A DNA stretch of 64,000 nucleotides, taken from IMG/VR virus record IMGVR_UViG_3300049174_000031; one strand, 5' to 3'. The translations under genes and the position numbers were made by a program. This document shows, in pieces, positions 13,485-17,589 of this stretch; position 1 is the stretch's first letter; every line of letters starts with the position of its first letter. Origin of the DNA: a virus (taxonomy: Duplodnaviria > Heunggongvirae > Uroviricota > Caudoviricetes). The notes under the pieces were generated by a model, which did not search any database, was not told the origin of the DNA, and saw only the letters and a program-made list of their open reading frames with translations.

Positions 13485-14985
13485 TATTGGAACTCCACCA
13501 GAGTCGAGCCGTCACCGCCACGACCACCCGCGCCGTTCGATCCGAGCAGTGACCAGCCGCCGCCGCCTCCACCACCGCCACCGGGGGCACCGCCGTTGCC
13601 GCCCGCGCCACCGTTGCCAGAGCCGTTACCCCCGCCGCCGCCTCCACCGGAGCCGCCGTTGGTGGCGTTGCCACCCGCACTCCCGGCCCCACCGGCATCC
13701 GCGCCCGCGGTGCCGCCGGGGGCCGCGGTATTTCCCCCGGCACCGCCGGGAGCGCCAGTGAACAGCGTCGAGCGGGCACCCGAACCGCCACCGGCCCCGC
13801 CACCGTCGTGGTTGTCCTGGCCGACCGATCCGGCCTGCACAGAACCGGGAACGCCACCGCCGTCGCCGCCGTGGGACATCTGCGGGGTCACCCCGGTCGC
13901 GCTCGGCACGCCACCGGCCGCCGGGCCGGTGTACTGGGTTCCGGCCGTGCCGCCACCGGCCGTCAGCAGGACCGAGCCGGTGGAGAACGTGGAAGCGGTG
14001 CCGTTGACGTTCTGGGCACCGCCGGTCCCGAAACCGACCGAGTAACTCGGGCCGAACAACCGGGCGGGCACCCAGACCCGATGGATCATGGACCCGCCAC
14101 CACCGCCCGAGCCGGGTCCGGTCCCTCCACCGCCGCCACCACCGACGAGTGTCACGAAGGCCCCGTGGATGTTGGCCGGGGTGGCCTGGTTGGCCCGTGC
14201 CGTATTGCCCTCGGCGAACGGCATGAAGGGCACCGAGCCCGCGGGGGCCTGGGAGGTGGACACCCACAGCGCCGGGTTGAGCGTGCTCGCGCTCACCGAG
14301 GCGTCGGGGGCATTGCCGGTGAGGGTCAGGTAGAGCGTGACCGGCCCGGAGATCACCGTCATCACCTCGTAGCAGGAGATGAGGCTGATCGTGGAGTTGC
14401 CGTCGGAGTCCGAGCTGCCCGCGCCGATGGCCAGCACCTGGCCGCCCGCCGAGCCCAGCCGCACACGGGCCACCGGGGGCTCGCCGTCGTGGGCGGTGTG
14501 CACGTCCACCACGCCGTAGATCTCGGTGATCTGATACAGGTGGCCCTGGTCGGGGATCGTCGTGGTGTACACGGTGGTCTCGCCATTGCCGCTGGCGGTG
14601 ACCGTCGCGCCGTTGTAAGCGGCCGGGGAGTAATAGGCGGCCGGGTAGGTCTGCTGAGAGGGGACGTTGACTCGGGCCGGGTCCACCTTGCCGCTGGCGT
14701 CCAGGCCGGGCATCCCGACTATCGCCCCGCCGCTGTTGACGTTGATCTGGGCCTTGTGCAGCAGCCCGGCGTCCCCGGCATCGACGTAGGCCTTGGTGGC
14801 CAACAGCGCGTCCTGCTGATCGACGTAGGCCCTGGTGGCATAGGGGGCGAACCCGGCGCTGATCAGCGCGTCCACCGTGGCCTGGTCGATATTCTGAGCG
14901 GTCAGACCGTCCAGATAGCTCTTGGGCACCAGGTCGTTGGGGTGGGTCGGGGTAGGCCCGACATAGTCGAGGGCCGCCACACTAG
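13484..14985 (-). CDS. Glycine-rich minor tail protein (~500 aa)
   Basis: GTG start overlapping upstream stop (TAGTG); N-terminal LDYVGPTPTHPNDLVPKSYLD and AYVDQQDAL motifs; long poly-Gly C-terminal tracts (GGGGGGGTGPGSGGGGGS, GGSGGGGGGGNGSGNGGAGG), typical of actinophage Gly-rich minor tail proteins. Confidence 0.6.
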
Positions 14986-17589
14986 AACCCCCAGTCCTCG
15001 TCAGGCAGCCAAGCTGGCGGCTGTCCCTTCTTCTTCTTGGGTTGACCGGACGAGCTGGTCGAGGGCTTCTGGGCCCACGGCTGCTTGCTCTGGTACCCCT
15101 TGGACTTGTAGGGCTTGTGCGGCTTGTACCCGCCGCCGCCATAGCCACCGCCGCTGCTGAAGCTGGGGAAGCTGCCACCGCCGTAGGGCTGGTATTTGGG
15201 CTTGCGCTTCCAGGCCTTGGCCCCGCCGCTGGCCAGGTTCTGCTCGCGCTCGATGGAGGTCTTGTCGTAGAAGTCGCCCAGGTCCTTCATCAGGTTGTTC
15301 TTGCGGTCAACCAGGTAGTCGAGGAAGGCACCGGGGTCGTTGGGCTTGAACGGGGGCTTGGTCAGGCCGCGGCTGGGGTCGGGCGGCTGGGTGTAGAAGC
15401 TGCCCGTGCCGTAGCGGCCGGTGCCCAGCATCCCGGCGTTGGCCGCGCCGTGGGCGTAGGGAGAGAACAGCTGCCGGATCTTCCAGTCCGGGATGTCCTG
15501 CAGGCTCTGGACGAACTGCCCCAGCTCGCCCTCGCGGGGGTCGAGCATCTCGCCCTTGCCCCTGGCGTGGTCCTGCCACATCCGGTTGTAGATAGGGTCC
15601 TTGGCGTAGTAGTTGGGCTTGAACTTGTAGTCCAGCCGGTCCCCGCCCAGGTACTTCAGCGCCTGGCCCTTGTCGATGCCGACCAGGCCGTGGTCGGTGT
15701 CCAGCCAGTTGCCGACGTGGGCGTCGTGATTGGCGATCAGCCAGTCCAGGGCGTGATGCTTCTGCAGCGTCAGCTGCTCGTCGTCGGTCATGTGCTTCAG
15801 ACCCGGCGGGTGGCCCTTAGGGAACTGGTCGGGACTCCATCGCAGGGGAGCCTTCGCCTCCCCGTTGGGGCCTCGGTAGCGCTTGACCGCGGTGGCCACC
15901 CCACCCTGGAACGGCATGGCGTAGGTTTCCGGGGTTTCCAGGCCCACCATCTGCTGCAGCTTGGCGGTGGCCGCGTCCAGCGGGGCCAAGAACTCATTGC
16001 CGTGGTTGGGCCGCTTGACCAGCCACTGGCCCTGCGGGTCGGTGTAGAACTGGGAGTCGTTGTGGCTGCCCGCGAACTCCCCGGTCGGGACCATCTCCTT
16101 GGGGTTGGGCATGGCCATCGCCAGGCGGCCGACGGCCGCGATCTTCTCGCCCATATGCCGGTGGGCCATGGCCCGGTCGTACAGGTCGCCGAAGTCGTTC
16201 ATCAGACTGTTCTTGCGCTGCACGGCGTAGTTGAGGAAGCCCTCCACGTCGTTGGGTTCCAGGCGGGCATCGGCGTGCTTGTTGTACTGCTTGTGATACC
16301 GGGACAGCCCGCCTGCCGCCGCGGCCTGCTCGGCATAGGGCCGGATGGTGTCGGCGAACTCGGCGTCGTCCAGGTCCTGCAGACCCTGGATGTACTGACC
16401 CAGCTCGCCCTGGCGCGGGTCATTGAGGATGCGCCCGCCTTGGGCCATGTTGCGGTAGAGCCCGTTGTAGACCGGCTCAGTCTCGCCGTAGACACCGTTG
16501 GGGTGGTAGTTCCAGTGCAGCCGGTCCTGGGCGTAGTGCTTGAAGGCCTGGCCCTTGTCGATGCCGACCAGCTCGCCGTCGGGGGTGCGGATGAACTGGT
16601 TGCCGTGGCTGTCATGATTGCCGATCAGCCAGTCCAAGGCGTGGTGCTTCTGCAGCGTCATCAGATCGGCGTCCGACAGCTTCTCCGGGTCGGGCTTCTT
16701 GGAGCTGAAGGCGTTCTTGGAATCCGGGAACATCACCTGTGCCGACGCCGGGACCTCGTCGTAGCCGCCCTGCGGGGTGGAGTTGATGGCGAAGGTGGGC
16801 GGGGTCTTGAGCCCCGACGCCGCCTGGATGGCATTGGCCGCCACGTCCCCGGCGGCCATGAAGGGCCCGTAGGAGGGGGTGTGCTTGATCAGCCAGCGCT
16901 CGCCGCTGGGCTGCTGGTGGATCTCGGTGCCCTCATGGGTGGAGCCGGTGGACTCCCCGGTGGGCTGCATCTGGTTCAGACCGGGGAACTGCTGGCCCCC
17001 GGTGGCATCGAACGCGCCCTCGATGATGTGTGGGCCGGGGTGCCAGTCCTCATAGTCGCCCAGGCCGTGCTGCAGCCAGTCGTGCTCGATGGTCGGATCG
17101 GCCGCCCACGGCAGCGGGATGACGTTGTCGGGCGGCGGCTCGTCGGGCTGGTTGGCATAGCGCCGGGCACCGAACTCACGGGGATCAAACGGATCGGTGT
17201 CAAAATCGCCAGTAGCATCCCGATAGGACTGCTCAGCGGCTGCCTTAGCCTCATTCTCGGCACCGGAACCCCATCCTTGAGGAGGCACCCTACCGGCATT
17301 AAAAGGGTGGTTATCAATGGTGTGTGCCCAAACAATGTCATTGGAGTTGGAGATGGGTCCACGGCCAGGTAACCAAACATGAAGCCTGTGACCGTCACCC
17401 TTATCTAGCCGCTGCTCTCCTGGGCTGTCTGGGTGCATAACCCACTGTTCACGGGGAGCAGCCGTCTTCTTCCACGGCAGGTCGGAATACTTCGATGGAT
17501 CGGACTGCGCAACGGGCCCGATGCGCGGGGTGGCCCGCTCCTCACGAAAGACGGCCCCGCTGTCGTTGGCCGAGGTGATGCGCCTCATC
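14982..17589 (-). CDS. Tail-cluster protein with two tandem HipA/PI3-4-kinase-like catalytic-loop domains and Gly/Tyr/Lys-rich C-terminal tail (868 aa)
   Basis: Real start ATG at 17587-17589 overlaps the TGA of the upstream fibre gene (ATGA). The N-terminal 590 aa of track ORF 14982..19367 are junk frame. Two ~230-aa paralogous repeats, each with WL[IV]K, LQKHHALDWLI[GA]NHD[SA]H.GN and LVGIDKGQA motifs. Confidence 0.6.

Follow-up and report, generated by a model that had tools for sequence, protein, structure and literature searches.

Tandem atypical-kinase-like units in a structural-module protein of a tailed phage, a candidate virion-delivered effector

What might a protein built from two kinase-like units do among the structural genes of a tailed phage? 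The question is raised by a gene on the minus strand of a 64,000-nucleotide (nt) stretch of DNA from a virus of the class Caudoviricetes (IMG/VR record IMGVR_UViG_3300049174_000031; the whole stretch is termed the window herein), which encodes a protein of 868 amino acids, here called the tandem kinase. An earlier note on this DNA, drawn up from the sequence alone, had claimed two tandem units resembling HipA and the phosphatidylinositol (PI) 3- and 4-kinases, each with a candidate ATP-contacting Lys, a D-x-H-x-x-N loop, and a metal-binding Asp in this order. Pfam matches, profile searches of the PDB, a profile-profile alignment (hhalign), and the invariance of key residues in 154 of 154 units bear out this central claim. 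As to function, we propose that the tandem kinase is a virion-borne effector kinase delivered into the host, a reading whose chances we judge to be about even.

Fold and active site of the two units

Unit 1 (residues ~201 to 488; positions 16125 to 16988, minus strand) and unit 2 (residues ~490 to 790; positions 15219 to 16121, minus strand) were delimited by alignment and by structure prediction. They are paralogous, with ~290 aligned residues at 40% identity (BLASTP E value of 3e-57), far beyond chance. At about 285 to 300 amino acids, they are longer than the ~230 amino acids first estimated, and the N-terminal region that precedes them spans about 200 amino acids instead of ~280. The motifs quoted in the earlier note are present in the order given, with ERWLIKH at residue 230 and QWLVKR at residue 521, LQKHHALDWLI at residues 312 and 608, and GIDKGQA at residues 342 and 637; the Gly/Tyr/Lys-rich low-complexity tail is also there (GGGYGGGGY at residue 813).

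Searched against Pfam, the tandem kinase gave subthreshold matches to HipA_C (E value of 6e-4), PI3_PI4_kinase (E value of 2.6e-3), and Fam20C. When the same was done for 63 nonredundant aligned units (alignment A1), HipA_C was matched by 49, PI3_PI4_kinase by 26, Fam20C by 20, LepB_N by 10, and ABC1 by 6. A profile of the units run against the PDB sequences retrieved almost exclusively atypical kinases (HipT, HipA, Fam20, the type II PI 4-kinases [PI4K-II], LepB, and DNA-PKcs), aligned at the catalytic loop. A single-sequence search of the PDB returned a match to the C-lobe helices of Legionella lpg1496 that was at chance level (E value of 0.34) and was disregarded. AlphaFold2 predicted unit 2 with a mean predicted local distance difference test (pLDDT) score of 95.5 and a predicted template modeling (pTM) score of 0.94, and in a Foldseek comparison of this model with the PDB, CtkA came first (E value of 3.5e-6) and kinases made up 50 of the 50 best matches. 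The N-lobe of the model has the canonical order of three strands, the αC helix, and two further strands. In the C-lobe, a long helix carrying LQKHHALDWLI is followed by the catalytic loop and two short strands, within a full helical lobe. The bilobal fold of the protein-kinase-like (PKL) superfamily, with an N-lobe β-sheet plus αC and a helical C-lobe, was thus recovered by AlphaFold2 and Foldseek, two of the checks proposed earlier, and no all-beta fiber fold was found. In a model of the full-length protein, both units were predicted at pLDDT scores above 90, and residues 1 to 200 and 790 to 868 scored below 50 and are predicted to be disordered. These models support a PKL fold for the tandem units, which are better described as "-like" than as members of the HipA or PI 3-/4-kinase families. 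Within the PKL superfamily, they lie nearest the group of PI4K-II, CtkA, HipA, and Fam20.

The key residues of unit 1 are G215, K235 (the β3 Lys), D248 (the αC acidic residue), the loop N324-H325-D326-S-H328-G-N-Q331, and D344 (the metal-binding Asp of GIDKGQ); those of unit 2 are G507, H509, K525, D538, the loop N620-H-D622-A-H624-V-G-N627, and D639. The invariant columns of alignment A1, which are G18, K36, D133, and D150 in unit 2 numbering, correspond to G507, K525, D622, and D639. Conservation was counted over 154 units extracted from 111 homologues, at a mean pairwise identity of ~38 to 58%. The β3 Lys (K235/K525), the catalytic-loop Asp (D326/D622), and the metal-binding Asp of IDKGQ (D344/D639) were each found in 154/154 units, an acidic residue (D or E) at the αC position (D248/D538) in 150, and a His two residues after the catalytic Asp in 149. 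The position five residues after that Asp separates the classes of units, with Asn in 46/46 copies of unit 2, Gln in 33, Gly in 11, and Asn in 2 copies of unit 1, and Gln in 35 and Asn in 27 single units.

Aligned with Escherichia coli HipA by hhalign (probability of 77%; E value of 1.9e-5), alignment A1 places D133, H135, N138, and D150 on D309, H311, N314, and D332. The HipA loop cited earlier as GNTDDHAKNFS in fact reads GATDGHAKNFS in E. coli; the D-x-H-x-x-N register that it was quoted for holds. In the unit 2 model, K525 ends a strand (E31-36) and D538 lies inside a helix (H45-58), and the elements expected of a PKL enzyme are all found, namely, the pair of β3 Lys and αC acid, the catalytic Asp, the downstream Asn, and the equivalent of the DFG Asp. 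By alignment and by their place in the predicted secondary structure, rather than by measured geometry, the motif positions appear to coincide with the catalytic elements of kinases and would sit in the active-site cleft. Judged by its residues, unit 2 is fully canonical, and unit 1 keeps the Lys and both Asp residues with a systematically altered metal-binding position. Both units are probably catalytically competent atypical kinases.

The same residues bear on the possibility that the protein is a pseudokinase scaffold, in which the kinase fold would be kept as a structural or adaptor module of a tail or capsid accessory protein and catalysis would be lost. The Gln or Gly that replaces the metal-binding Asn in most unit 1 orthologues would fit such a role, and pairs of a kinase and a pseudokinase are common elsewhere, as in Fam20A/Fam20C, which are among the PDB matches. 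However, the β3 Lys, the catalytic Asp, and the DFG-like Asp are invariant despite the low mean identity of the units, and every tandem protein has them in each of its two units; the Asn of unit 2 is retained throughout, and nothing fiber-like was predicted. Because the catalytic residues are invariant, we regard the scaffold as the least likely of the alternatives and as very improbable.

Spread and domain partners of the kinase unit

No model in Pfam, NCBIfam, or PHROGs reached its threshold for the kinase-like units; NCBIfam gave a faint match to the SCO1664 family (19.9 bits against a cutoff of 172), and the sole match in PHROGs was phrog_11186, of unknown function (E value of 7e-4). The units therefore form an unnamed family. 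A profile search of 1.84 billion representatives gave 4,011 clusters (50% identity) at E values of ≤1e-3 and 965 at ≤1e-30, with most matches being proteins of 1,000 to 6,000 amino acids. The 111 relatives from the first database search included 47 tandem proteins, whose unit 1 and unit 2 copies fall into two distinct orthologous groups with ~58% identity within and 41% between groups, which indicates that the duplication is old and that both copies have been kept. An SLT (PF01464) or Rpf-like transglycosylase (PF06737) domain is a frequent addition in tandem homologues, and a GNAT domain is an occasional one. In some tandem proteins (P0006, P0015, P0016, P0018, P0026, and P0031 to P0038), insertions of 90 to 580 amino acids part the two units; P0006 has such an insertion when compared with P0005, and the units of P0026 lie at residues 279 to 566 and 1147 to 1429. 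The remaining relatives have one unit inside a very large protein that starts with a MuF (PF04233) or VG15 (PF25310) domain and ends with an ADP-ribosyltransferase (ART) domain (PF03496). Mycobacteriophages and many prophages have this arrangement, with the unit placed between the head and ART domains.

Nucleotide searches of a phage collection with the gene alone or with 25 kb of the window gave no match, which suggests a phage without a close sequenced relative, and a protein search of the phage database found only twelve mycobacteriophage records. A single unit is present in gp53 to gp56 of McProf-type prophages, annotated as a "minor capsid and ADP-ribosyltransferase fusion," and in gp15 and gp16 of Onyinye, Aikoy, and Leopard, annotated as "ADP-ribosyltransferase"; it also forms the N terminus of gp195/gp220 of Phrappuccino/Settecandela, annotated as "hypothetical." In Phrappuccino, the unit starts the giant gp195 directly after gp194. 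We considered whether the region matched in the mycobacteriophage proteins could be the ART domain itself and rejected this, as the ART domain of McProf gp54 spans residues 1007 to 1176 and the kinase unit residues ~463 to 737. Among viral structure models in BFVD, Onyinye gp16 was the one close match (TMq of 0.75), and more distant matches were PI3K/PI4K-like domains in portal, ART, and Nudix fusion proteins.

Reference genomes that carry the unit belong to Actinomycetota, Desulfobacterota, Acidobacteriota, Planctomycetota, Armatimonadota, Chloroflexota, Verrucomicrobiota, and other phyla, with a recurrent form being a MuF protein of ~1,520 to 1,600 amino acids that has the unit near residues 700 to 950. 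Polymorphic toxins with a WXG100_2 domain (type VII secretion) also contain it. One of these, on the chromosome of an Actinomycetota metagenome-assembled genome (L009, positions 3729 to 16786), is an open reading frame (ORF) of at least 4,352 amino acids with WXG100_2, the kinase unit, Gln_amidase, and three Scabin-like ART domains, and another (P0112) has, besides WXG100_2 and a tandem kinase, three stretches of ART. Co-occurrence of the kinase unit with ART domains is a recurring trait of different delivery systems, and in other proteins units accompany NUDIX, GNAT, or SLT domains. This sharing of one unit by MuF-ART, WXG100_2, and NUDIX/GNAT/SLT proteins is the behavior of a modular effector cassette. 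One relative (P0117) has Hint/intein matches elsewhere in the protein.

Gene position, terminal peptides, and proposed function

The tandem kinase gene (positions 14982 to 17588, minus strand) is a single uninterrupted frame of 868 codons followed by a TAG stop at 14982 to 14984. Its ATG lies at 17586 to 17588, so that the start given in the earlier note, 17589, is corrected by one position, and the ATGA overlap on which that note based translational coupling is present, being formed with the TGA of the upstream ORF (17585 to 21073, minus strand). With this overlap upstream and the next gene beginning 1 nt past the stop, the gene is tightly packed in an operon. The exact protein also occurs in short public contigs (8.1 and 5.4 kb), which added only gene calls. 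In JGI contig Ga0497387_000051 (L004, 3128 to 5434), it was called from an internal GTG as a protein of 768 amino acids, 100 codons late; that call leaves a 297-nt gap behind the upstream gene and misses a conserved leader peptide. As homologues conserve the extreme N terminus, the ATG at 17588 is supported.

The upstream gene encodes a protein of 1,162 amino acids that matches the "virion structural protein" family phrog_2824 over its full length (E value of 1e-231) and shares 37 to 38% identity, from end to end, with Phrappuccino gp194 and Alice gp232. The earlier label of tail fiber for it is unsupported; RefSeq describes Alice gp232 as structural, "putative capsid decoration." Downstream on the same strand follow a minor-tail-like gene with a GTG start (13484 to 14980; 498 amino acids; phrog_2938/754/1446; Alice gp233), two minor tail genes for proteins of 275 and 254 amino acids (11882 to 13484; phrog_1446; Alice gp234 and gp235), and a giant ORF (1 to 11223, minus strand) that starts with an ATG at 11223 and continues past the left end of the window after at least 3,741 codons. 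Its frame has no stop codon between 11394 and the window edge and a G+C content at third codon positions of 0.88; Pfam found no domain in it, and it is homologous to giants of 2,500 to 3,100 or more amino acids at the equivalent position in related contigs. In one relative, the giant neighbor gave faint LysM and VldE matches.

Three distant metagenomic contigs have one and the same order, with a ~1,200-amino-acid protein, a tandem kinase (with or without SLT), a ~450-amino-acid protein, one to three minor-tail-sized genes, and then a giant gene of >2,500 amino acids. In Alice (L089, 5571 to 11969), the gp232-gp233-gp234-gp235 module is present without a kinase gene and is directly followed by the lysis cassette, and the other cluster C mycobacteriophages likewise have the module without a kinase (none was among the phage database matches), so the tandem kinase gene is inserted between a gp232-like and a gp233-like gene. 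Farther away, the window holds a replication module (46151 to 63947, minus strand) with a fragment of a DnaB-like helicase, a primase, a single-stranded-DNA-binding protein, a 1,165-amino-acid DNA polymerase (phrog_405), a UvsX-like recombinase, and an exonuclease. The idea that the window is a canonical head-tail morphogenesis cluster was rejected, given replication genes at 46 to 64 kb and a kinase gene in a separate structural module like that of Alice gp232 to gp235. Among the small genes separating the replication and structural modules are one for a polynucleotide kinase/phosphatase-like protein (23827 to 24789, minus strand; HAD_PNKP, just below threshold) and one for an SPFH/Band 7 protein (27966 to 28982, minus strand; phrog_200, "lipoprotein").

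Given its place inside a structural module, to which it is translationally coupled, the kinase could act in morphogenesis, phosphorylating proteins of the virus itself (that of phrog_2824, those of the minor tail, or the giant) during assembly or, in multidomain relatives, regulating the ART domain with which the unit recurs in single polypeptides. CotH, which phosphorylates spore coat proteins, and the kinase-fold SidJ, which regulates SidE and is a precedent for such control of a co-effector, would be parallels. However, the gp232-to-gp235 module must be able to assemble without the kinase, since the cluster C phages have the one and lack the other; Pfam finds no ART partner domain in the tandem kinase; and the occurrence of the unit in toxins secreted by type VII systems speaks for a site of action in a different cell. 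We consider a self-directed role quite unlikely.

The disordered arms of the protein carry two short conserved peptides. Nearly all tandem proteins share a peptide of ~14 residues that starts at residues 4 to 6 and was seen in 37 database homologues (examples are MRGILRASERDAIFRD and MAKPILRQSERDAIFRE, and the form found here is MRRITSANDSGAVFRE), with the general form [IL]-[LVT]-[RS]-x-[SA]-[DE]-[RS]-[DGV]-A-[IVY]-[FW]-[RH]. In a six-frame translation of the window, this pattern matched exactly twice, at the N termini of the tandem kinase (residues 1 to 17, MRRITSANDSGAVFREE; 17538 to 17588, minus strand) and of the giant ORF (MRGGLVRAADRVAYWH; 11176 to 11223, minus strand), and 0 matches were found in 100 triplet shuffles. 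As the pattern was built from the kinase family, only the matches in giant proteins count as independent. In two related contigs (L006, at 10010 and 16877; L008, at 10013 and 16981), the leader is likewise found on the kinase and the giant only; the giant of a third (L007) has a near-match, MPKGLVRAADRVAFWV, and Phrappuccino-type proteins have a related start, MSRSVLTQREQF. The rest of the N-terminal region (residues 18 to 200; 16989 to 17537, minus strand) is mostly disordered by prediction and has a conserved pre-kinase element, LP.HDW.QH.LGD.E.W, around residues 155 to 182. At the other end, tandem proteins without a C-terminal enzyme domain have a basic low-complexity stretch and then an acidic-aromatic motif, the endings being AWLPDEDWGF in the tandem kinase, whose tail (residues 791 to 868; 14985 to 15218, minus strand) is disordered, basic, and rich in G, Y, K, P, and Q, and EDAWDWET, LFDDEWGED, and KPWDDDEW elsewhere. 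An SLT or Rpf-like transglycosylase domain takes the place of the tail in other homologues.

By analogy, these two short linear motifs look like docking or targeting signals, and the leader may serve for virion targeting or docking. The T4 capsid-targeting sequence is a precedent for a short terminal targeting motif. We tentatively put forward, as a possibility rather than an expectation, that a leader of the form M-x(2-4)-[IL]-[LVT]-[RS]-x-[SA]-[DE]-[RS]-[DG]-A-[IV]-[FW]-[RH] marks at least two cargos, the tandem kinase and the giant of >3,700 amino acids, for virion loading and ejection in large actinobacteriophages akin to Phrappuccino and cluster C Bixzunavirus, and that the tandem kinase founds, as its stand-alone example, a new and very widespread family of effector kinases that are injected or secreted and are shared with phage head-protein fusions and type VII toxins. 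Within this proposal, the usual association of the family with ADP-ribosyltransferases suggests that kinase and ART act together on one host pathway.

The shared leader also bears on whether the protein enters the particle at all. As a late cytoplasmic enzyme or toxin outside the virion, it would act, without being injected, inside the cell that makes it or, once that cell has lysed, on bacteria nearby. This would agree with the lack of a recognizable virion-anchoring domain in Pfam searches and with the occurrence of the unit in bona fide secreted toxin architectures, and a possible use of MuF toxins as weapons in interbacterial competition has been discussed (PMC5576092). The leader held in common with the giant protein suggests common targeting, however, and the gene order is conserved inside a virion module. 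A virion-associated lysin would better account for the SLT and Rpf-like fusions, and no small immunity-like gene follows the kinase in the window, where the next gene encodes the 498-amino-acid minor-tail homologue. We hold a role outside the virion to be decidedly unlikely.

A further alternative concerns the target. The hosts of phages with related structural proteins are Mycobacterium, Gordonia, and Rhodococcus, which together with a G+C content of 65% suggests an actinobacterial host. Mycobacterium, Gordonia, and Rhodococcus contain PI lipids. The kinase could then be directed at the envelope, acting at entry on a lipid, sugar, or cell-wall precursor (PI or PI mannosides, or a peptidoglycan or arabinogalactan precursor), and it would weaken or remodel the envelope and aid genome penetration beside the hydrolase domains fused in sister phages. 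Such a target would suit the LepB_N (PI 4-kinase) matches in 10/63 units, the SLT or Rpf-like transglycosylase domains of many tandem homologues, and the faint LysM and VldE matches mentioned above, and MuF-fused Zeta-toxin-like sugar kinases have been proposed to aid DNA injection (PMC5512222). The family is also found in phyla not known for PI lipids (Desulfobacterota, Acidobacteriota, and Planctomycetota), though, and the protein kinases CtkA, HipA/HipT, Fam20C, and CotH score equally well; moreover, there is no ATP outside the cytoplasm, so that an extracytoplasmic kinase needs a special explanation. We consider an envelope target unlikely.

We therefore return to delivery of an enzyme into the host, where the choice posed by the earlier note, between a delivered enzyme and a pseudokinase scaffold, is tipped by context toward the former. 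The units occur in MuF/VG15-ART head proteins, WXG100 toxins, and SLT/Rpf-like hydrolase fusions, and the coupling to the phrog_2824 gene, the minor tail genes that follow, the recurring gene order, and the shared leader support the same reading. MuF-fused and polyvalent proteins have been proposed to be packaged and injected (PMC5512222 and PMC5576092), as is the ADP-ribosyltransferase Alt of T4 (PMC5576092). By analogy, an active kinase would travel in the particle and enter the host upon infection. In the sequence of events that we propose, the tandem kinase would be made late, alongside the virion proteins, and would be incorporated through its disordered ends, by way of the N-terminal leader common to the giant protein and the acidic-aromatic C-terminal motif. 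It would exit the virion with the DNA upon infection and phosphorylate one or more host targets, with ATP-Mg held by the β3 Lys, the D-x-H-x-x-N/Q loop, and the Asp of IDKGQ. This phosphorylation would help takeover or blunt defense ahead of any phage gene expression.

Several points weigh against this reading. Activity, virion incorporation, and ejection of the tandem kinase rest on inference, and Pfam finds no MuF, portal, or other recognized head-anchoring domain in the protein. Its structural neighbors phosphorylate proteins (CtkA, HipA, Fam20C, and CotH), lipids (PI4K, MavQ, and LepB), and sugars (Fam20B), which leaves the substrate class split, and, should the resemblance to growth-arresting toxins of the HipA type extend to the target, the phage would seem to work against its own interest. 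In place of the metal-binding Asn of unit 2 and HipA, unit 1 has Q331, and with this Gln, or the Gly of some orthologues, it may be catalytically altered. Finally, the full-length model has a pTM score of 0.50, which makes the relative placement of the two units unreliable and does not give a dependable picture of how they might cooperate.

If the tandem kinase is injected, its interest would lie in timing, as premade effectors act before phage gene expression and are prime candidates for early takeover or antidefense functions; kinases are almost unexplored in this role. Our searches of the literature for HipA with MuF, PI3_PI4_kinase in phages, virion-associated kinases, and Phrappuccino/McProf found nothing on the kinase-unit family in what was searchable. 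What sets the family apart are its size, the conservation of its tandem form, the leader peptide held in common with the giant, and its hidden presence in cultured mycobacteriophages, whose records say no more than "ADP-ribosyltransferase," "minor capsid protein," or "hypothetical." Naming it would reannotate thousands of phage and toxin proteins. The cultured carriers (Onyinye, Aikoy, Leopard, Phrappuccino, and McProf-type prophages) offer a tractable experimental entry, and the recurrent pairing with ART domains, together with the presence in type VII toxins, links phage infection biology with interbacterial warfare.

Comparison with known kinases and injected phage proteins

HipA and HipT (PF07804) share with the units the register of the [GN]-x-D-x-H-x-x-N-F loop and the downstream metal-binding Asp. 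The weak HipA_C matches of the 63 units had a best E value of 2.4e-8 and none reached the cutoff, and the tandem kinase itself, at 20.0 bits against a gathering threshold of 30.5, falls outside the family. It has no HipA N-terminal domain in Pfam searches, its neighbors are structural genes with no HipB or HipS partner, and HipA/HipT chains are about 13 to 16% identical to the unit in structural alignments. HipA and HipT belong to toxin-antitoxin operons, whereas the units are found in tandem duplication, virion modules, MuF-ART proteins, and WXG100 toxins.

With PI4K-IIα, LepB_N, and MavQ, the units have in common the D-x-H-x-x-N loop and weak PI3_PI4_kinase and LepB_N profile matches. The PI3/PI4-kinase family (PF00454) was matched at 18.1 bits against a gathering threshold of 27.1, which likewise falls short of membership, and in place of its DRHxxN motif the units read N-H-D-x-H-x-x-N/Q, with no Arg. 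PI4K, LepB, and MavQ are lipid kinases, whereas the tandem units show no pointer to lipid substrates; LepB and MavQ are enzymes delivered into another cell. CtkA of Helicobacter pylori, the best Foldseek match to unit 2, is yet only 12 to 14% identical to it, has no chain among the PDB sequence-profile matches, is a single domain, and has a different C-lobe elaboration. It is a compact atypical Ser/Thr kinase whose gene lies on mobile DNA and which is delivered into a cell other than its own.

The closest architectural relatives are the MuF polymorphic toxins and polyvalent proteins (Jamet 2017, PMC5576092; Iyer 2017, PMC5512222), which host homologous single units in the order MuF/VG15, kinase, ART; the tandem kinase differs in having no MuF or VG15 domain in Pfam searches and in being encoded in a tail-proximal structural module. 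That injected phage proteins include enzymatic effectors, kinases among them, is a published concept, and the kinase clade described there is a different one. The polyvalent-protein kinases of Iyer et al. 2017 have lost the C-terminal subdomain and are found in Verrucomicrobia-Chlamydia and Bacteroidetes lineages (PMC5512222), and an identity of our units with that clade was rejected on account of this missing subdomain and the other host range. In the phage database search, the T7 gp0.7 kinase and T4 Alt showed no sequence kinship to the units; both are functional precedents of phage origin, acting on host proteins by covalent modification as infection begins, and the T7 kinase, which PMC5512222 also cites, is the precedent for the chemistry. 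T7 gp0.7, the phage kinase studied best, is made early, after entry, and is not carried in the virion.

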